Counted from the first letter of the stretch, positions 15,862-54,372 are shown. The stretch is DNA of 64,000 nt from Gammaproteobacteria bacterium (GCA_965227695.1 OZ245760.1:594236-658235), one strand, 5' to 3'. Notes: generated by a model not told the origin, from the sequence alone. Made by a program: numbers and translations.

Positions 15862-16665
15862 ATGCCGACACAGGATTCAAAAATCGCATTATATGGTTTT
15901 AATAATTTAACAAAAACACTCAGTTTCAACTTTTATGATATCTGTTATGCAAAAACAGACAGGCAAAGGGACGAATATATTGAGTATATTGATGAAACCT
16001 ACAGTGCACATCGACTGACAGAAGTACTTACCAATGTTTCTGACATAATTGGCGCCACTATTTTAAATGTTGCAACACAGGATTATGACCCAAATGGCTC
16101 AAGCGTAACGATGTTGATTTCGGAAGAAAATGCATACGTCGAATCGCCCGAGGAGCAAAACAGGGAAGCTGAAAACCATAGTGTTGTGGCACATTTGGAT
16201 AAAAGTCATTTGACCGCACATACTTATCCTGAGTCTCATCCGGATGGCGGAATTAGTACATTTCGAGCCGACCTGGATATCTCCACCTGTGGGAAAATAT
16301 CACCGTTGAAAGCACTTAATTACCTGATTGACAGCTTCGATGAGGATATTGTTATCCTTGATTACAGGATTCGCGGTTTTACACGCGATGTGCAGGGGCG
16401 AAAATTCTATAAGGACCATAGTATTTCTTCCATACAGGAATATATGTCGGAAAAAACCCGGCAACAATATCAGATGATCGATGTGAATGTTTATCCTGAA
16501 AAAATCTTTCATACTAAAATGATGCTCAAGCAATTTGAGCTGGATAACTACCTGTTTGGTGATGACCAGGAGGTCATGTCACATGAGGAGCAGGAACATA
16601 TAGAGAACCTGCTGCGTAATGAAATGACAGAAATTTTTTATGGTATGAATCTGAATCAGTTCTAG
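15862..16665 (+). CDS. speD: S-adenosylmethionine decarboxylase proenzyme
   Basis: 267 aa. [23 protein letters not shown] and [14 protein letters not shown] match E. coli SpeD closely. Confidence 0.9.
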
Positions 16666-25317: not shown

Positions 25318-25524
25318 GATATTGGGAAAGCGCACTCCATGAGTACCGTGGCGATGGCCGTTGACCTTGAACCAGAGGTTCAAGTGGGTTCACTGTAAAA
25401 GTCTTAAGGCTCCCTGCTTTTGCAGGTATGCACACTGACTATTAACAAGCAATCCCGAGGTTTGTTAATAGGCTCAAGGGATTTAACGACGTGCTCACGC
25501 ATATCGCAGAGGCGCTGACTCCAA
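25318..25524 (-). ncRNA. ssrS: 6S RNA (SsrS), immediately downstream of zapA; ends approximate
   Basis: The minus-strand transcript contains, in the same order as E. coli 6S, the segments CUCUGCGAUAUG / UCCCUUGAGCC / AGCCUUAAGAC / the hairpin CUUGAACC-ucu-GGUUCAAGG / a 3' end ...GUGCGCUUUCCC. It sits at the conserved zapA-ssrS position. Confidence 0.6.
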
Positions 25525-46811: not shown

Positions 46812-48008
46812 ATGAACATAATTATAAAGCATAAACAGCAGAAAGGTGCTGTTTTGCCAGTTGTGGGCGCGATTACCCTCATTACGGTGGTCGCCATAAT
46901 ATTGGTCTGGTTGTTAGTATGGACCAAACCCCAGCCGCAGGCCACATTGGCCCCGTTACCGCCGGTCAAGGTGGCTGTCACTGAAGTGGATAAACGATCA
47001 GTGCAGCCTATGGAGGCACAGACCGGCCGTTTACAGCCGATTAAAACGGCTCAACTGGGTTTTGAGGTGGCAGGAAAAGTGACCCGGCGACAGGTTGAAC
47101 CAGGTATCAAGGTAGACCAAGATAGCGTCCTGATGCAGCTGGAATCATCCGATTACCGGAATCAATTTGAACAAATCACGGCGGAGCTTGAGATCGAGCA
47201 GGAAAGTGTGGCTCGCGACAAAAAACTGCTTCAGTACGCACGCAACAATCTCGATCTGCAACAACAGGAGGTGCAGCGCCTGCAAGGTCTGGTAACGCGC
47301 AATCTCATTGCACAATCACAACTGGATAGCGTGCGCCAGCGCGTTTATGATCTGCAATCTGAAGTAGCGCGACTTGAATTTACCGTAGCTACCAGTCATG
47401 CCCGCTTAAAGATGAAAAAAGCCCAGCATGATATTGCCCAGCGTAATCTCTCCCGCACAACTTTGTATGCTGCTTTTGAAGGTGTAGTGAATGAAGTATT
47501 TGTTAATGTCGGTGATTATGTTAATGCAAATGAAGTTGCGCTGACGCTGGTTGATGCGAGTGAATATGATGTGCAGCTGGATGTGCGCGGAGAAATAATC
47601 AGGCAATTACACCTGGGCCAATTAGTAGAGGTAGCCATTGGAGAACATAAATCAATGGGTAAAATTGTCGCACTCCAGCCTGATCCGGATATAAATACAA
47701 ATACCCACGGCGTAAGAGTAAGGGTATCAAGGGAAAATTGGCAGTCCGGAATGCTGGCAACTGTATACCTTCCGTTATCAGAACTTGAACAATCCCTGAT
47801 GATTCCTGTCGCCTCGGTACTGAATCAATATGGCAAGTCTTATGTTTTTATAGTTAATAACAATAACCTGGTTGAAAAAAAACCGGTAAAACTCGGACGC
47901 AGGATTGATAATCAGATTGTTGTACGTCAGGGCGTGGTTGCAAGCCAGTTAATCGTTGCACGCGATGTGAGTTCTCTTGCTGATCAACAGCAAGTCACCA
48001 TTGAATAG
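46812..48008 (+). CDS. efflux RND periplasmic adaptor (membrane fusion protein, HlyD family)
   Basis: 398 aa. Has an N-terminal TM anchor, a long coiled-coil hairpin (QLESSDYRNQFEQITAELEIEQESVARDKKLL...), and lipoyl/beta-barrel domains. Sits directly upstream of the RND pump. Confidence 0.8.
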   Translation: MNIIIKHKQQKGAVLPVVGAITLITVVAIILVWLLVWTKPQPQATLAPLPPVKVAVTEVDKRSVQPMEAQTGRLQPIKTAQLGFEVAGKVTRRQVEPGIKVDQDSVLMQLESSDYRNQFEQITAELEIEQESVARDKKLLQYARNNLDLQQQEVQRLQGLVTRNLIAQSQLDSVRQRVYDLQSEVARLEFTVATSHARLKMKKAQHDIAQRNLSRTTLYAAFEGVVNEVFVNVGDYVNANEVALTLVDASEYDVQLDVRGEIIRQLHLGQLVEVAIGEHKSMGKIVALQPDPDINTNTHGVRVRVSRENWQSGMLATVYLPLSELEQSLMIPVASVLNQYGKSYVFIVNNNNLVEKKPVKLGRRIDNQIVVRQGVVASQLIVARDVSSLADQQQVTIE

Positions 48009-48016
48009 ACATTACT

Positions 48017-51000
48017 GTGGGCATTATAAAATTTTCCATAAGTAATTCCCTGATTGTTAATTTACTATTGGTGGTCATTGTCGTTGCCGGGATTCTTTCA
48101 TGGCGTAGCATGCCGCAGGAGATGTTTCCGATTGTAAATCTCGATCTGGTACGCATAGTCACTGAATATGAAGGGGCCCCTCCTGAAGAAGTTGAGAAGC
48201 AAATTACTGTGATCATCGAGGAGGAAATTGAGACACTGCCGGATGTTGATGTAATTACCTCGGAAAGCTCAGAAGGACTTTCCAAAATAGAAGTCAAGTT
48301 AAAAACCGATGTCGATGTCGATGACTTTTTGCGCGAAGTGCGTTCTGTCATTGATGCCATAGATGATCTGCCCGAGTTGGCTGAAACACCTGAGATCAGC
48401 CGATTAAAAACACGTTTCCCGGTAATCAGTGTTGCACTTTATGGAAGTACGGACCTGGGGGTTTTATATGACACTGCAGAAGATGTAAGAAGAGAATTAT
48501 TAAGCCTTGACGGCGTAGCAAGTGTTGGTATAGCGGGCAACCAGGAATGGGAGTTATGGGTTATTGTTAACCCTCATCAAATGGCTGCGCGTAACGTGAC
48601 GCTTTCAGAGGTGCAAAATGCCCTGAGTAAAAATCTACAGGACTTGCCCGGTGGTTCATTGCAGGCCGCGGAAGGAGATATTCTGTTGAGGGGAATGGGG
48701 GTCGCACCAAATGCAGCAGAAGTCGGGAAACTGGTACTAAGAGGAACAGCCGGGGCAGGGCAGTTAACTCTTTCGGAAGTTGCACAAGTTGACTTGCGTT
48801 TAGAGGAAGCTAAAACAATTGGTCGATTTAACAGTGAGCCCTCAGTAAACCTGACTGTCACGAAAACAGCCCGCGCGTCGACAATTGATGTTGCCGAGTC
48901 TGTTAAAGAGTTTACGGCCAGTCTGCAACAGCGACTGCCTGTCAGTATTAAGGTTGGCCTGTTTAGTGATTTGTCAGTGTATGTAAAAAATCGTCTTGAA
49001 ACAGTGATATCTTCAGGTGTAGTCGGTCTGGTCCTGGTGCTTATCTCCCTGTATGTGTTTTTAAATTTTCGAGTTGCCTTTATTACTGCGCTGGGAATAC
49101 CTGTTTCTTTTTTGGTGGCCATTATTCTCATACATTATCTTGGTTACACCATTAACATGATCTCACTATTTGCATTTTTGATTGCACTTGGGATGATTGT
49201 CGATGATGCCATTATTGTGACTGAGAATGTTTACAGGCATATTGAGGATGGGGTCGAACGCGGCAAAGCTGCCCTGATGGGTGCCAAAGAGGTTTTTTGG
49301 CCGGTTGTGGCATCTACATGTACAACGGTCGCCGCTTTTATTCCCATGTTTGGTGTGAGTGGAACATTGGGAAAATTCATAGAAGTGATACCCGTAGTGG
49401 TTAGTGCAGCATTGATAGGTTCGCTTATTGAAGCTTTTTTAATCTTGCCTTCGCACTCTGCGGAATTCTTAAAAATAGATAAAACAAGACGCAAAGAAAG
49501 TGTGTTCTGGCAGCGTTCACTGGCTAAATATACTTCTATTCTCGGTTGGGCGCTGAGAAACCGTTACATTGTATCGGCGCTTACCATCGCAATCCTCGCG
49601 GTTATCCTTGCATATGCAAATACTCGCCTGCCCTATAATCAGTTTGGGAATGTGGAGATAGGCCAGTTTTTGATTAATATAGAAGCGCCTAATACCTATA
49701 GCGTTGAAGATTCGACCGAATTGGCGAAACAAATAGAAGAAAAAATTAATAAGGTAGTCAAGCAGGAAGAATTAAAGAGCATGCTGACAAATGTTGGTGT
49801 TATTTTAATTGATTTTAATCGGTTAAAAATGGGCAGCCACTATATTCAGTTTATTATTGATCTGCAAAAACCGGCGCCGAAAACCATAATCGAGAAATAT
49901 ATTTCACCAGTGGTGAATCTCAAGTTTGAAACGGATGGCACACGGACAAGAAGCACAGAAGAAATTATTGATGCCATTCGTAGCGAAATTCATGTCATAG
50001 CAGGGATACAGAGATTCTCAATCCTGCGACCTCAGGGTGGACCTTCAGGTGCGGATATAGAAGTAGGCGTTATGGGAGAGAATATTGAACAGCTTATCGA
50101 GCATTCCAGAAAAATCAGCGGGTTTCTGGAAAGGCTGCCGGGTGTCAGGGACGTGCGTCAGGACCTGGAACCCGGGAAGCTGGAGTATCAGTACACATTA
50201 AATGAACGTGGCAGAAGCCTGGGGTTAACACAGGCTGAGTTGGCAAATGCGGTGAGAACAGGATTTGTCGGACTGGAGGTGACTCAGGTTAACTGGAAGG
50301 ATGACCGCTACCCTGTGCGCGTGATTTATCCGGATACATTAAGAAAAAGTGGCAGTAGCCTGGAAAGCCTGCCAATCACACTGTCAGGGGGCAGGACTGT
50401 TTACCTTGGTGAGGTGGCAGATATATCACTGGGGCGAGGATTAGGCACCATACTTCGCAGGGACGCACAGCGACTTGCCATTGTTACTGCAGAGGTTGAT
50501 CTGGAAACAACAACACCGCTAAAAGTGAATGAACTTGTAGAGATTGAGTTTGCAGACCTCATGAGCAAAAGGTCGGGTTATCAGTTATTATTTTTAGGGG
50601 AAAAGAAAGAGGCCAATGATTCATTTAATGACATGTTTAATGTCTTGATTATGTCGTTGGCCGTCATATTTTTTATACTGGCTGCACTGTTCAAGTCGGT
50701 GCTTGATCCTTTTGTTATCATGCTGGCAATTCCTTTTGCGATTGTTGGTGTAGTCATTGGGCATATCATATTCGATTACAATCTGCAGTTTCTTTCCATG
50801 ATAGGTTTTTTGGCCCTCACCGGTATTGTGGTTAATGATTCCTTGATCCTGGTCGATTTTGCAAAAAAACGGCGCGCCCAGGGACTGGATTGTTATGACG
50901 CGGTAATTGATGCCGGTAGAGTCCGGATTCGCCCAATTCTGCTGACAACCATTACAACTTTTTTGGGGATTTCGCCTTTGATATTTTTTGCCAGCGGCCA

Positions 51001-51163
51001 AACGGCTTTCCTTTCCCCGATGGCAGTAAGCCTGGGGTTCGGCCTGGTGTTTGCCACGGCATTAATTTTAATTGTAGTTCCATGTTTTTATATGGTCCTG
51101 GATGATATGCGCCAGGCGACTTATGCAGGCATCAGAAAGCTGAAGCAACAAGATGGTGATTAA
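48017..51163 (+). CDS. efflux RND transporter permease subunit (AcrB/AcrD/AcrF superfamily)
   Basis: 1048 aa with 12 TM segments and two large periplasmic loops. The N-terminus MGIIKFSISNSLIVNLLLVVIVVAG is typical. No outer-membrane factor gene is adjacent. Confidence 0.9.
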   Translation: MGIIKFSISNSLIVNLLLVVIVVAGILSWRSMPQEMFPIVNLDLVRIVTEYEGAPPEEVEKQITVIIEEEIETLPDVDVITSESSEGLSKIEVKLKTDVDVDDFLREVRSVIDAIDDLPELAETPEISRLKTRFPVISVALYGSTDLGVLYDTAEDVRRELLSLDGVASVGIAGNQEWELWVIVNPHQMAARNVTLSEVQNALSKNLQDLPGGSLQAAEGDILLRGMGVAPNAAEVGKLVLRGTAGAGQLTLSEVAQVDLRLEEAKTIGRFNSEPSVNLTVTKTARASTIDVAESVKEFTASLQQRLPVSIKVGLFSDLSVYVKNRLETVISSGVVGLVLVLISLYVFLNFRVAFITALGIPVSFLVAIILIHYLGYTINMISLFAFLIALGMIVDDAIIVTENVYRHIEDGVERGKAALMGAKEVFWPVVASTCTTVAAFIPMFGVSGTLGKFIEVIPVVVSAALIGSLIEAFLILPSHSAEFLKIDKTRRKESVFWQRSLAKYTSILGWALRNRYIVSALTIAILAVILAYANTRLPYNQFGNVEIGQFLINIEAPNTYSVEDSTELAKQIEEKINKVVKQEELKSMLTNVGVILIDFNRLKMGSHYIQFIIDLQKPAPKTIIEKYISPVVNLKFETDGTRTRSTEEIIDAIRSEIHVIAGIQRFSILRPQGGPSGADIEVGVMGENIEQLIEHSRKISGFLERLPGVRDVRQDLEPGKLEYQYTLNERGRSLGLTQAELANAVRTGFVGLEVTQVNWKDDRYPVRVIYPDTLRKSGSSLESLPITLSGGRTVYLGEVADISLGRGLGTILRRDAQRLAIVTAEVDLETTTPLKVNELVEIEFADLMSKRSGYQLLFLGEKKEANDSFNDMFNVLIMSLAVIFFILAALFKSVLDPFVIMLAIPFAIVGVVIGHIIFDYNLQFLSMIGFLALTGIVVNDSLILVDFAKKRRAQGLDCYDAVIDAGRVRIRPILLTTITTFLGISPLIFFASGQTAFLSPMAVSLGFGLVFATALILIVVPCFYMVLDDMRQATYAGIRKLKQQDGD

Positions 51164-51229
51164 ATCGGGTTCTTTAATTTCCTGGCCAAACTGCTACTAT
51201 TGCCCGGCAAAGAATTATTAGGTGCAACA

Positions 51230-52072
51230 ATGAAACTTACCTCGAATGAACTTTACGCACTTCCCAATAAAGCGATTACATTGCTGGGAATGTCTGGTGT
51301 TGGTAAAACCACACTGGCAAATAAACTGGATAGGTCAAAGTGGTTTCATTACTCTGGTGATTATCGTATCGGCACAAAATATCTTGAGGAGCCAATACTT
51401 GACAATATCAAGGAGAAAGCGATGAAAATTGACTTTCTTGCCGATCTTCTGCGTACTGATTCAATATATATCTGCAGTAATATTACAGTCAATAATCTTG
51501 ATCCTGTCTCTACATTCCTGGGTAAAGTAGGCAACGAAGAACTGGGAGGATTGGAGTTGAGTGAGTTTAAACGTCGCCAGTTTCTGCATCGCCAGGCTGA
51601 AATATTTGCTATGCTTGATGTGCCTGAGTTTATCGGTAAAGCAAAAAATATCTATGGTTATCCCAATTTCCTCAATGATGCAGGTGGCAGCTTGTGTGAG
51701 TTGGATGACCCCGAGGTATTTGAAGTACTGTCCAAGCACACTATTATTTTATATATACGTGCGGATAGTGAACATGAACAGACCTTGTGTGAAAGAGCGC
51801 TAAAACACCCCAAGCCGCTTTATTTTCAGGAGGAGTTTCTTGATAAACATCTGGCGATGTTCCTGGAAGAAAAAAACATCAGTTCTGTGAACGAGATTGT
51901 GCCGGATGAATTTAGCGGCTGGGTATTTCCCAAATTATTAGAGCATCGTAAACCAATGTATGAACTAATCGCAGAAAGATATGGGTACACTGTCAGCTTG
52001 CAGGATGTCCAGCAAGTACGTGATGAAAACGACTTTATTGAGTTGGTCGGTGAAGCGATAGATCGCAGTTAA
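51230..52072 (+). CDS. P-loop NTPase with shikimate-kinase/NMP-kinase-like motifs and an approximately 100-aa insertion; function unknown
   Basis: Has Walker A LLGMSGVGKTT, a GGS box (NDAGGSL), and a KHPKPLYF segment that resembles the shikimate kinase RPLL region. It is about 280 aa, whereas canonical shikimate kinase is about 170 aa. Start is the ATG at 51230 (good SD), or alternatively the TTG at 51200. Confidence 0.5.
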   Translation: MKLTSNELYALPNKAITLLGMSGVGKTTLANKLDRSKWFHYSGDYRIGTKYLEEPILDNIKEKAMKIDFLADLLRTDSIYICSNITVNNLDPVSTFLGKVGNEELGGLELSEFKRRQFLHRQAEIFAMLDVPEFIGKAKNIYGYPNFLNDAGGSLCELDDPEVFEVLSKHTIILYIRADSEHEQTLCERALKHPKPLYFQEEFLDKHLAMFLEEKNISSVNEIVPDEFSGWVFPKLLEHRKPMYELIAERYGYTVSLQDVQQVRDENDFIELVGEAIDRS

Positions 52073-52090
52073 GGATATTTATTTTCTGTT

Positions 52091-53089
52091 TTGCCTCTAA
52101 TCCAGCATAATAAGTTACCAAGTATTGAACGCGTCGGTATGGAAGGCGTCAGCGTACGCTCGTGCGATCAGGTCAATACACAATTACCAAGTATTAATGT
52201 TGGTTTTCTAAACATGATGCCAGATGCCGCCTTGGCAGCAACGGAAAGACAGTTTTTAAGACTGATAGGCGCTAATACTGATGTAAACTGCTATTTTTAT
52301 CCATTTACTATTGAAGGCGTGGCGCGGTCCGACCAGGCGCAAACTTATGTGGATGAATTCTATTTCGATTACGATTTACTTAAAACGCAAAAAATCGATG
52401 CACTGATCATCACCGGTGCGAATGTGAAGCAGCCCCTGCTGCAAAATGAATTATTCTGGCCGGAGTTAACACAGGTGCTAGCCTGGGCAAAGCGTCATGT
52501 CCGTTCTACATTATGTTCGTGTCTGGCAACTCATGCTGCAATCAAAGTATTTTATGGCGTTGATCGTCAACATCTGGGTGAAAAATGCTGGGGAGTATTT
52601 GAACACCAGGTTCTAATCAAAGAGCACAAACTGGTCAACCAGGTTTCCCAGAAATTGCAAATGTGTCACTCGCGCTTCAATGACATACCTGAACGAGAAT
52701 TTATCAATCATAATATTGAAATATTGATCGAAAGTGATCAGGTCGGGGTGCAGCTGGCGGCTGAGAAAGATATGAGTGTAGTTTATTTTCAGGGGCACCC
52801 GGAATATGATGATATAAGTCTGCTCAAAGAATATAAGAGAGAGGTTGCCCGCTTTCTTGCCGGTGAAATCAGTCAATATCCTGTGGTTCCGCTTAATTAT
52901 TTTGATGCCCGGGCAATGGAAGATGTCAACCGATTTCGATCAAGGGCAGAGCATGCTGATAATGGTGTGTCGCTGCTTGACATTTTCCCTGAGGACGACC
53001 TGAAACTGCGCGTGACTAATTTATGGAATCAGGCCGCCCGACAAATATTTACAAACTGGGTCAACATTGTTGTGAATGAAAGTTTCTGA
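52091..53089 (+). CDS. homoserine O-acyltransferase family protein (MetA/HTS-like)
   Basis: 332 aa from a TTG start. The N-terminus MPLIQHNKLPSIERVGMEGVSV...NVGFLNMMP aligns with E. coli MetA ([22 protein letters not shown]...LILNLMP). Carries Cys-His-Glu triad contexts (STLCSCLA, QGHPEYD) and FTNW near the C-terminus. Confidence 0.7.
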   Translation: MPLIQHNKLPSIERVGMEGVSVRSCDQVNTQLPSINVGFLNMMPDAALAATERQFLRLIGANTDVNCYFYPFTIEGVARSDQAQTYVDEFYFDYDLLKTQKIDALIITGANVKQPLLQNELFWPELTQVLAWAKRHVRSTLCSCLATHAAIKVFYGVDRQHLGEKCWGVFEHQVLIKEHKLVNQVSQKLQMCHSRFNDIPEREFINHNIEILIESDQVGVQLAAEKDMSVVYFQGHPEYDDISLLKEYKREVARFLAGEISQYPVVPLNYFDARAMEDVNRFRSRAEHADNGVSLLDIFPEDDLKLRVTNLWNQAARQIFTNWVNIVVNESF

Positions 53090-53729
53090 TCCTGCCTTTT
53101 GTTGCCAGCAACAACAAAGCCGAGGCGAACAACCACACAGCTCCGGGCAATGGAACCGGGCTGGCTGTCAATGTGACGGAACCTGCCTCACCGGGCGTAC
53201 CAATATCTCCCAACCCATATACACGGTCCTGAGTTAACTGATAGTCCGCTGGGGTTGGAATGGTTGTCTGTCTGATGAGTTCAGCGCTTACCCCTGAAAT
53301 TCCAAATGGGTCACCTGCATAATCGAGGCGGGTTAATACCTGACTGTCGTCAGAGATAATAATCTGGTCGCCAGCATTATTCAATGTGAAGTTGCTATAG
53401 ATATAGTCTGCAGTTAATCCGCCATTGAGCGTGCTGTCTCCATTTCTTGCCATCACGAAATAACTTCCTGCATTGATAGTCAGGCTTTCATTACTGCTTA
53501 TCTGGTGAAGATTACTTCCGTCATCACTGATGATGAGTCCATTCATGTCGATGGGCTGCATGGTTGTGTTAAAAATCTCAAACCATTCACCCGCAGTGTC
53601 ACTGGATTGTGCCGGATTAGCCATTACCTCACTGATTATCAGGTGTCCTGGTTGTAAGGTTGCACTGTAACTTTCACTGTGAGCGCCAATGGAAATAAAG
53701 AAAAAAATAATTGGGATAATTTTACGCAT
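53061..53729 (-). CDS. lamin-tail-domain (LTD) protein with PEP-CTERM-like C-terminal sorting signal
   Basis: 222 aa from the ATG at 53729. A signal peptide (MRKIIPIIFFFISIGAHS) is followed by the LTD core LIISEVMANP...GEWFEIFNTT. The C-terminus is VPLPGAVWLFASALLLLATKGRIRN (VPxP plus TM plus basic). The 3' end overlaps the metA-like gene by 29 bp, convergently. Confidence 0.55.
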   Translation of the reverse strand: MRKIIPIIFFFISIGAHSESYSATLQPGHLIISEVMANPAQSSDTAGEWFEIFNTTMQPIDMNGLIISDDGSNLHQISSNESLTINAGSYFVMARNGDSTLNGGLTADYIYSNFTLNNAGDQIIISDDSQVLTRLDYAGDPFGISGVSAELIRQTTIPTPADYQLTQDRVYGLGDIGTPGEAGSVTLTASPVPLPGAVWLFASALLLLATKGRIRNFHSQQC

Positions 53730-53928
53730 GTTATCGTGTCCTGGTGAGTGTGAAGACAAAGCATAATTATCTATTGAGCGTTATCAATGATGGTCGTGCG
53801 TAGTCGCACAATGTGCCGCAATCAACATGATCGCGGTGAAAGAAAACTGGCGCTGTTCAGGCACAGAGATTAAGCTTGGCAATATTTTCTATCTGAGATT
53901 TTGTAGTGTATTTACTGAAGGTGAAAAT

Positions 53929-54372
53929 ATGGTTTTTCTGAGGCCCTGGTGCTTGATATGCGGCTATGCGTGTGTTTGTTTCATCTTCAGTACAGTGCAG
54001 GCACAGGAATTCGATTACTATCCATATATTGCCAAATATGCCAGGTGTGAGGCGATACAGAATGTAATGGCAAATGTAGCCAGTGAATCGGAACAGGAAT
54101 TTTTTCAACACGCACTCCATCATGCGTCGCTGGCGTCAAGAAAAATTGCCCTCGCTTTTGCAAAAGCGGGGAGTTATCCGGCGGGAATGGTTGATGAACT
54201 TTATCAAACTTATCTGGATGAATATCGGCAACAGCTCAGAAGCAATGCTCAGGCTGAAAGTCTGATCGCCGCACTTCGTCCGTATGTGAAAAAATGCCAG
54301 CACCTGCTGGATATGCAGGCAGATCTGATCGTTGACCCCAAAACAAATGCTCTTTATCAGGATGAACCGTGA
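53929..54372 (+). CDS. hypothetical secreted protein
   Basis: 147 aa from the ATG at 53929, preceded by an AAGGTGA SD. The signal peptide is MVFLRPWCLICGYACVCFIFSTVQA-QE, followed by a helical, Ala/Gln-rich mature part. No family recognised. Confidence 0.4.
   Translation: MVFLRPWCLICGYACVCFIFSTVQAQEFDYYPYIAKYARCEAIQNVMANVASESEQEFFQHALHHASLASRKIALAFAKAGSYPAGMVDELYQTYLDEYRQQLRSNAQAESLIAALRPYVKKCQHLLDMQADLIVDPKTNALYQDEP

Follow-up and report, generated by a model that had tools for sequence, protein, structure and literature searches.

A shikimate-kinase-fold protein encoded with MetA: a candidate component of methionine metabolism beside an RND efflux pump

The genes at the locus

The window analysed here is a stretch of 64,000 nucleotides from a 2.7-Mb contig of a gammaproteobacterium. 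An earlier note had placed four genes at 46812-53089, and ORF calls and profile searches recovered all of them there, on the plus strand. The first (46812..48008) encodes an RND periplasmic adaptor (MFP), which scores 168.5 bits against TIGR01730 (cut-off 94.9) and also matches HlyD_D23 and HlyD_3. The second (48017..51163) encodes an inner-membrane pump of 1048 aa, matching PF00873 (ACR_tran) over its full length (617.8 bits, 4.3e-185). With an ACR_tran permease and an RND_mfp adaptor, the two genes make up an RND efflux system, for which no adjacent OMF gene is required. The same note had remarked that no OMF gene is present, and indeed no OEP-family gene is found among the annotated genes of the window. 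Known two-gene RND systems with an unlinked TolC-type channel are similar, consisting of an adaptor and a 12-TM ACR_tran permease with no OMF gene nearby, but the permease of the window differs in scoring below the cut-off of every NCBIfam equivalog and subfamily model, so that these models assign it no substrate class. By these scores, the pump belongs to a divergent subfamily. The neighbours of the two pump genes are the divergently oriented lptD and the kinase gene described next. All annotated genes of the 64-kb window are housekeeping genes, and no other biosynthetic gene near the kinase and metA is found among them.

The third gene encodes a P-loop protein. Its ORF ends at 52072 and can start at TTG 51200 or ATG 51230, which places it 36 or 66 nt behind the pump gene. 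The start is set at ATG 51230 by homologues and by a database protein that is identical over its 280 aa, and a Shine-Dalgarno sequence (AGGTG) is located 8 nt before this ATG; the gene is accordingly taken as 51230..52072. A spacer of 18 nt (52073..52090), typical of the junctions between such kinase genes and HTS-family genes, separates it from the fourth gene (52091..53089), which starts with TTG and encodes a predicted homoserine O-succinyltransferase (MetA) of 332 aa. No terminator-like site is predicted in the pump/kinase or the kinase/metA spacer.

Assignment of the fourth gene is straightforward. Its product scores 257.8 bits against PF04204 (cut-off 27; 1.4e-76) and 380.3 bits against the MetA equivalog model NF003776 (cut-off 358). 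In an ungapped alignment with E. coli MetA (PDB 7cbe), C144 corresponds to C142 of the E. coli enzyme, and the motif GHPEYD holds the His and Glu (E. coli H235 and E237). The residues for substrate are also kept, namely K165 (E. coli K163), the Ser of HSR (S192) and the Arg of EYKRE (R249). This alignment, together with an exact match of the 332-aa TTG-start product to a protein of the same 2.725-Mb contig in a public collection, confirmed the Cys-His-Glu triad, the MetA-like N-terminus and the TTG start that had been read from the DNA earlier. The suggestion made at that time that the HTS protein serves something other than methionine synthesis found no support, since the NF003776 cut-off is passed and all annotated functional residues are kept; by family, the protein is an orthodox MetA. 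Some differences from E. coli MetA (7cbe, 6mtg) are found beside the shared triad, substrate residues and N-terminus. The window protein falls into the long subtype (332-356 aa), which carries additional sequence at the C-terminus; it has MMPDAA in place of the LMPKK motif, and Lys113 occupies the acyl-specificity site, a Gly (G111) in E. coli. Lys113, not Glu as in acetyl-type MetA, fits use of succinyl-CoA. In addition, E. coli metA is not preceded by a kinase gene. Neither metX nor a second metA is found among the annotated genes in these 64 kb. That neither an OMF gene nor other met genes are found nearby is nothing out of the ordinary, because TolC-type channel genes are commonly unlinked to RND pump genes, and metA of E. 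coli stands alone without other met genes beside it.

The P-loop protein has a shikimate-kinase fold in its AF2 model (pLDDT 96.3, pTM 0.91). The motifs pointed out from the sequence alone are all present (GMSGVGKTT, the GGS of DAGGSLCE, and HPKPLYF), and residues S22, G25, K26, D44, E124, D150, G153, S154, C156, K195, P196, R240 and G252 are invariant. Its structural matches include the shikimate kinases AroK/AroL (PDB 1e6c, 3vaa, 1kag, 2iyq), with which it shares the fold but only 15-22% identity. The matched chains have 149-192 residues, and the window kinase reaches 280 aa by a helical insertion of ~100 residues, roughly 52-145, which carries the invariant Arg116 and Glu124; the excess of about 110 residues claimed earlier was thus borne out. 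The shikimate-binding residues of AroK/AroL are D-x-D, R58, GGG and R136. As mapped by sequence and secondary structure only, D44, G153-S154 and R240 are placed comparably to such residues; the first Asp of D-x-D is Ser42, and the region of R58 is taken by the insertion. Cys156, Glu124 and Arg116 are extra invariant residues compared with AroK/AroL, and the kinase gene has a methionine context rather than an aroB or chorismate one. In Pfam and NCBIfam no family reaches its cut-off, and SKI (PF01202) and AroK are absent at E<=0.01. Gluconate kinase and AAA_33 are neither sequence-model matches nor the best structural match; some of the weaker structural hits are nucleoside kinases. The earlier view that this protein departs from ordinary shikimate and gluconate kinases agrees with these results, and the protein is a predicted member of an uncharacterised shikimate-kinase-fold family.

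Conservation of the kinase–metA pair and of its neighbours

Two independent samples were used for comparison, 79 species-representative genomes and 71 metagenome contigs. An HTS gene lies directly downstream of the kinase gene in 53 of the genomes and 60 of the contigs (113 pairs), so that the two genes are conserved neighbours, as the earlier note had supposed, far beyond the lineage of the window. When all fetched loci are included, 119 kinase–HTS pairs are obtained. Both genes share one strand in every pair, and the gap has a median of 13 nt; >90% of the spacers are under 45 nt, and overlaps or spacers of 1-20 nt are frequent. The genes flanking the pair differ between clades and the contexts are otherwise unrelated, and HTS still follows kinases just 41-46% identical to that of the window. 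The MetA partners are of two types, the long NF003776 type and one near the acetyl-type model (455.2 bits, cut-off 460.5). Judged from this arrangement, kinase and metA form a tight two-gene operon, widespread in bacteria, and they are probably co-transcribed. No paper describing the kinase–MetA pair was found in the literature.

Pairing tracks the kinase phylogeny, with two clades all paired and one all unpaired. The unpaired clade has no HTS within 10 kb, and its members are as similar to the window kinase (60-65% identity) as the paired kinases of Methylococcales; this equal similarity of kinases lacking a MetA neighbour was counted in favour of an independent enzyme. Between the window clade and Methylococcales, the kinases are 61-65% identical and the MetA proteins 42-48%. 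In three alphaproteobacterial genomes, kinase homologues belong to a conserved metK–metG–kinase operon, followed in one of the three by a gene of the cystathionine-gamma-synthase (CGS) family. For about one quarter of the kinase family no methionine gene lies in the vicinity, which weighs against a methionine role. Distant relatives occur with DUF3644 and a helicase, RNase H, a flavin reductase, a haloalkane-dehalogenase-like hydrolase or CoA-transferases, and one is fused to an HTH domain. The PADLOC defence models gave no match for the kinase, the HTS, or the alphaproteobacterial MetK, MetRS and STAND-like proteins.

The pump is distributed quite differently from the pair. It lies upstream in only 15 of the 113 pairs (13 of the 53 in genomes and 2 of the 60 in metagenomes), so that it does not travel with kinase and HTS. 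All 15 are close relatives of the window and also share lptD (and surA) synteny. Within this clade the arrangement is kept (loci L003-L016, L102 and L164), with a pump-kinase spacer that varies from ~60 to 260 nt as estimated from coordinates. The RND adaptor and pump are lineage-specific neighbours of the conserved pair and not members of it; they stand next to the pair because of shared ancestry, as one clade has retained the lptD/surA synteny.

Possible roles of the kinase

The explanation which we consider probable is that two units happen to lie side by side in this lineage, an RND pump and a kinase–MetA operon whose kinase serves the methionine network. The two-gene pump would be an insertion that separates lptD from the following operon. 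MetA would catalyse the first committed step of methionine synthesis, in which Cys144 receives the succinyl group of succinyl-CoA and hands it on to the gamma-hydroxyl of L-homoserine. The kinase would be an independent cytosolic enzyme of the methionine network, and two independent associations, with metA and with metK–metG, support this link. It appears to keep the phosphoryl-transfer core of shikimate kinase, that is, Walker A, the acceptor-binding Asp44, the G-G-S turn, Lys195 of the lid and the C-terminal Arg240, to which the helical sub-domain would add Arg116 and Glu124. From this retained core and added sub-domain we infer kinase activity, and the acceptor is most probably a small hydroxylated carboxylate or amino acid.

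Other explanations must be weighed against this one. The best survivor among them, still rather unlikely, is that the kinase serves MetA as an accessory or regulatory partner, binding it and coupling its activity or stability to ATP or a downstream metabolite instead of producing an intermediate, as MetW may do for MetX. MetX commonly depends on the adjacent MetW, and the instability of E. coli MetA is notorious. The metX–metW pair of many beta- and gammaproteobacteria resembles kinase–metA in that an acyltransferase gene is tightly paired with a gene of unclear biochemical role. However, the two pairs are not homologous, MetX being an alpha/beta hydrolase and MetW a protein of methyltransferase fold, and the order is reversed, with the kinase gene first in the window. 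Overlaps or spacers of 1-20 nt in this very tight operon suggest translational coupling, the kinase pairs with two MetA subtypes, and its unusually high conservation, above that of MetA across orders, fits a protein-protein interface. Against this idea, a whole clade of close orthologues has no HTS in the neighbourhood, and alphaproteobacterial kinases pair with metK and metG instead. Furthermore, the lid and the conserved Asp of the acceptor site indicate genuine phosphoryl transfer onto a small molecule, and MetA of E. coli, like other MetA enzymes, functions without a partner.

Less probable again is a function in methionine/SAM recycling, in which the kinase would stand in for MtnK or adenosine kinase without being their orthologue, and would phosphorylate a by-product of SAM use such as 5-methylthioribose or adenosine. 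This one reading would fit all contexts, namely metA in Gammaproteobacteria, metK–metG with the CGS-family gene in Alphaproteobacteria, and stand-alone genes. The fold family includes sugar-acid and cyclitol kinases, beside the weaker nucleoside-kinase matches, and it would be physiologically sensible to co-regulate salvage genes with those of de novo methionine synthesis, the Bacillus S-box regulon being a precedent for joint control of methionine salvage and synthesis. Nevertheless, none of the salvage genes mtnA, B, C, D, N and P or ahcY occurs in the recurring or annotated neighbour clusters of ~170 loci.

It is quite improbable that the adjacency of kinase and metA is merely inherited gene order, with a kinase role unrelated to methionine. 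Pairing that follows the kinase phylogeny and the unrelated contexts of distant members would be expected from it, but the pair persists while its surroundings change, down to 41% kinase identity and with both MetA subtypes, the spacing is operon-like throughout, and another class has an independent association of its own, with metK, metG and a CGS-family gene. The least probable is the original proposal of a module in which pump, kinase and HTS serve the synthesis, modification and export of one dedicated small molecule, for example an amino-alcohol bearing a phosphoryl or acyl group, a signal or a siderophore-like compound: the four genes are co-directional with short gaps, no predicted terminator between pump and kinase, and an order retained in their own clade, but the comparative data have already largely refuted it, as the exporter is not co-conserved across lineages and the pump-kinase spacer varies even within its clade, the HTS passes the curated MetA model and has every functional residue, and the annotated genes of the 64 kb around are core housekeeping genes rather than a biosynthetic cluster.

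Homoserine as a candidate substrate

If the kinase is an independent enzyme paired with MetA, as in the two-unit explanation, the best single guess for its substrate would be L-homoserine, a tentative choice made by analogy. The operon would then encode both activations of the same hydroxyl, the phosphorylated product leading to threonine and the succinylated one to methionine. A precedent exists in DvMF_0971 of Desulfovibrio, a relative of shikimate kinase genetically proven to be a homoserine kinase by threonine-rescued mutants and complementation of E. coli thrB (PMC5764234). Here a shikimate-kinase-fold enzyme was recruited to the homoserine node, and its model, NF040667, is the sole specific NCBIfam kinase family touched by the window kinase. 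However, the proteins of NF040667 have ~163 aa and no insertion, and the window kinase matches the model in the P-loop region alone (residues 15-70; 23.8 bits, cut-off 197).

Several points are against homoserine. GapMind gives no low-confidence step for Methylomicrobium alcaliphilum 20Z, whose genus carries the pair; therefore a recognised ThrB is seemingly present already, and the kinase would be redundant or act on another substrate. Co-induction of a threonine-branch kinase with metA would make little regulatory sense, and a homoserine kinase would leave the metK–metG context unaccounted for. Conservation of the kinase above that of MetA suggests more constraint than a simple metabolic kinase would face.

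It is possible, at somewhat less than an even chance, that this shikimate-kinase-fold protein is an unrecognised and widespread component of methionine metabolism, either a new homoserine kinase working with MetA or an ATP-dependent partner controlling the first step. In prototrophs, thrB is still missing in 8% (bioRxiv 10.1101/2024.10.14.618325). If the protein is a homoserine kinase, it would set the threonine/methionine split together with MetA, and it would be one answer to these thrB gaps.

The predicted operon and its MetA

The four genes claimed in the earlier note, an RND adaptor, an RND permease, a P-loop protein and an HTS-family enzyme, were all found in the window, in the same direction. 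The adaptor gene (46812-48008, +) has a TIGR01730 match above cut-off, and the permease (48017-51163, +) is matched over its entire length by ACR_tran (4e-185); both are orthodox, ordinary pump genes. The permease falls below all NCBIfam subfamily cut-offs, which thus assign it to no substrate class. As already reported, no outer-membrane factor gene was seen among the annotated genes of the 64-kb window. The ORF of the P-loop protein, a predicted kinase, can be read from TTG 51200 or ATG 51230 to 52072 (+). The ATG is the start in all homologues and in an identical 280-aa database entry, and AGGTG is located 8 nt 5' of it. The HTS-family gene (52091-53089, +) starts with TTG, and its 332-aa product is on record as an exact entry from the same 2.725-Mb contig.

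The earlier note had suggested a role of the HTS protein outside housekeeping methionine synthesis, a view that its scores and residues do not support. The protein reaches 380 bits with NF003776, the NCBIfam equivalog model "homoserine O-succinyltransferase MetA" (cut-off 358), and 258 bits with the Pfam HTS model. In a gapless alignment with E. coli MetA (7cbe), the acyl-enzyme Cys is retained as C144, and the other residues kept at the same positions are the His and Glu of GHPEYD, Lys165, the serine of HSR, and the Arg equivalent to E. coli R249. Lys113 stands at the position of E. coli G111, which governs the choice of acyl-CoA; in work on Bacillus cereus, acetyl-type MetA reportedly has Glu there. 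Lys113 would thus fit succinyl-CoA as the donor. Neither the model scores nor the alignment to 7cbe gave any mark of a diverged paralogue, and the protein is best read as an ordinary MetA.

On the 5' side of the pump, lptD, surA and pdxA are divergently oriented. On the other side, a lamin-tail-domain gene (53061-53759, -), with a PEP-CTERM-like C-terminus and a weak PepA flocculation match, converges on metA with an ORF overlap of 29 nt (53061-53089) and is retained after metA by the majority of loci in the window's clade, i.e., the close relatives of this locus. A 181-aa ORF without Pfam or NCBIfam family (53827-54372, +) is conserved at the same position in these relatives with 47-55% identity. 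Downstream of the lamin-tail gene are also genes for an H+-pyrophosphatase, mrdA, rodA, mltB, rlpA and dacA, and the remaining window is housekeeping (deaD, purC, purK, rpe, trpEGDC, crp, speD, coq7, rpiA, ilvA, pepP, ubiH-like genes, lgt and thyA). Apart from speD, no other gene of the methionine or threonine pathways was seen among the annotated window genes. Rfam detected no riboswitch or other RNA 5' of the kinase and metA; its sole match in the window is a 6S (SsrS) RNA gene elsewhere (25329-25515, -; 73.7 bits, with a gathering score of 46.4).

Conservation of the kinase-metA pair

The kinase and metA genes form a real and widespread unit, a predicted operon. One genome per species was scanned, the best 80 loci were kept, and these were compared with the window proteins by tblastn; 79 loci have room for an HTS gene, and in 53 it lies directly 3' of the kinase. 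The paired loci include the window's clade (uncultured Gammaproteobacteria and 'Thiotrichales' MAGs) and all sampled Methylococcales, namely Methylomonas, Methylobacter, Methylovulum, Methylotuvimicrobium, Methylocaldum, Methyloprofundus and Methylothermaceae. The kinase tree has three clades: Methylococcales and the window's clade are paired throughout, and another gammaproteobacterial clade, in which the neighbours are Lhr helicase, rhomboid and EipA genes, is never paired. In a second, independent sample, metagenome contigs searched with a profile whose first row was a distant family member, HTS immediately follows the kinase in 60/71 loci. Kinases merely 41-46% identical to that of the window still precede HTS in very different surroundings, behind MacB-type ABC genes, behind ALAD and penicillin amidase genes, or overlapping the HTS start. 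Over all fetched loci, 119 pairs are on the same strand with a median spacer of 13 nt (>90% of spacers <45 nt), and the clades share no further conserved neighbour. Long NF003776-type MetA partners score 488-500 bits, and one partner is nearest to the acetyl-type model (455 bits, below its cut-off of 460.5); both MetA types are thus paired with the kinase, and the coupling is independent of the acyl donor. Full-text searching found no paper on the kinase or on the operon, and as far as such searching shows the coupling is undescribed.

The pump, together with lptD, adjoins the pair at 13 loci of the species sample, all of the window's clade, and is near just two of the metagenome loci. It is a lineage-specific neighbour. 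Thus, of the interpretation in the earlier note, the coupling of kinase and HTS stands, and the module for synthesis and export of a small molecule is not supported, the pump being such a neighbour and HTS an apparently ordinary MetA.

Methylococcales pairs (e.g., the fetched locus L076:9657-12391) usually follow a DUF6763 gene and precede a cytidine/deoxycytidylate-deaminase-family gene, both absent from the window. Two proteins of the public collection, P0209 and P0242, were considered as kinase-HTS Rosetta-stone fusions and rejected as frameshifted, Arg/Pro-rich, out-of-frame translations of high-GC reads; these artefacts still reveal that two more high-GC lineages have the genes in this order.

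A second genomic link to methionine is independent of metA. Alphaproteobacterial kinases, 55-71% identical among themselves and about 49% to the window protein, belong to a conserved four-gene unit in which a divergent protein of about 1000 aa is followed by metK, metG and the kinase. Three loci carry this unit, L088:1-5927, L171:1-7654 and L173:1-5852. The last is from Caulobacter sp. NIBR1757 (CP115463.1), and the other two are on metagenome contigs, one of them Hyphomicrobiales-like. The three genes metK, metG and kinase are tightly spaced; the gap between metG and the kinase is at most 8 nt, with a 4-nt overlap in L171, and a cystathionine-gamma-synthase-family gene lies 440 nt 3' in one locus. 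The large protein gives weak NACHT/TPR signals only, MetK is barely above its model cut-off and MetRS is a PRK12267-type match; metK and metG look like diverged, possibly additional copies. A defence role for this cassette was rejected, as none of its proteins matches a PADLOC model. Beside it in Caulobacter (L173:6057-10852), a 1095-aa protein matches RdrA (RADAR ATPase) marginally, and another, 779 aa long or more, gives a faint match to adenosine deaminase; the two may form a defence pair of the RADAR kind.

Two loci that have no HTS show a 4-nt overlap of the kinase gene with the next gene, a methyltransferase gene in L092:937-3553 and a haloalkane-dehalogenase-like hydrolase gene in L146:271-3218. 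The methyltransferase does not match the MetW model, and neither this hydrolase nor the generic one in L085 qualified as a MetX-like partner. A family III CoA-transferase gene comes next in both L092 and L146, a second recurring kinase neighbour related to acyl-CoA chemistry.

The kinase family and its predicted fold

In the profile-HMM comparison proposed earlier, HTS passed the MetA cut-off and the kinase matched no Pfam or NCBIfam model at its cut-off. The family is coherent, with strong conservation: of 8,000 candidates scored from 90%-identity clusters, at least 7,998 match at E<=0.001, and at 50% identity there are 584 clusters with a match. Members are usually 277-290 aa long, and source annotations are only 'ATPase' or 'hypothetical protein'. 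The AlphaFold model, built on 34 diverse members, has very high confidence (pLDDT 96.3, pTM 0.91). The P-loop protein is read as a predicted kinase of shikimate-kinase fold, and its family is an uncharacterised one.

Even when members of only 30% identity are included, thirteen columns are invariant: S22, G25 and K26 (Walker A), D44, E124, D150, G153, S154, C156, K195, P196, R240 and G252. Mapped onto shikimate kinase from sequence and secondary structure only, D44 would correspond by position to the acceptor-hydroxyl Asp and D150-G153-S154 to the GGG turn; K195-P196 would be placed in the lid, and R240 in the C-terminal helix, from which the carboxylate-binding Arg comes. About 100 extra residues (roughly 52-145) form a helical sub-domain, bearing E124, which is invariant, and R116, which is nearly so, in place of the small shikimate-binding domain. 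This mapping suggests real phosphoryl transfer, the predicted acceptor being a small acid or amino acid that carries a hydroxyl group. One distant member, P0196 (365 aa), ends in an HTH_3 (XRE-type) DNA-binding domain, so some relatives may be ligand- or ATP-sensing regulators.

Possible functions of the kinase

The data establish a genomic link of the kinase to methionine metabolism. The leading candidate for its substrate, at less than even odds, is L-homoserine, the only small alcohol in common with MetA. DvMF_0971, which is related to shikimate kinase, has been proven to be a homoserine kinase (PMC5764234), and thrB is still one of the four gaps most often left unexplained in prototrophs (GapMind 2026, bioRxiv 10.1101/2024.10.14.618325). 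However, the match to the homoserine-kinase model is confined to the P-loop region, co-induction of a threonine-branch enzyme with metA would be odd, and the metK-metG context is left unexplained. In addition, the GapMind gap counts show no low-confidence steps in Methylomicrobium alcaliphilum 20Z, a member of a genus with the pair, so a recognised ThrB seems present there.

Tight coupling, and the high conservation of the kinase (61-65% identity, against 42-48% for MetA), would also suit a MetW-like accessory partner of MetA, a role that we consider rather unlikely; the unpaired clade and the alphaproteobacterial branch do not fit it. A salvage or SAM-cycle kinase is compatible with all genomic contexts but lacks supporting neighbours and seems improbable. 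A speD-like S-adenosylmethionine decarboxylase gene lies about 35 kb from metA (15862-16665, +), so the genome probably produces methylthioadenosine, which bears on the salvage idea. Other substrates, or the absence of any functional link, take up the remaining probability.

To our knowledge, the methionine pathway of Proteobacteria is considered to be completely charted. Yet in many Gammaproteobacteria metA shares a predicted operon with a highly conserved kinase that has no assigned family, and among these bacteria are the genera to which genetically tractable methanotrophs belong (Methylotuvimicrobium, Methylomonas and Methylobacter). If the kinase acts on homoserine, it would be an additional type of homoserine kinase; if it regulates MetA, it would be a new control point in a pathway of biotechnological interest. 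The family is a well-defined lead, open to genetics, and merits a name.
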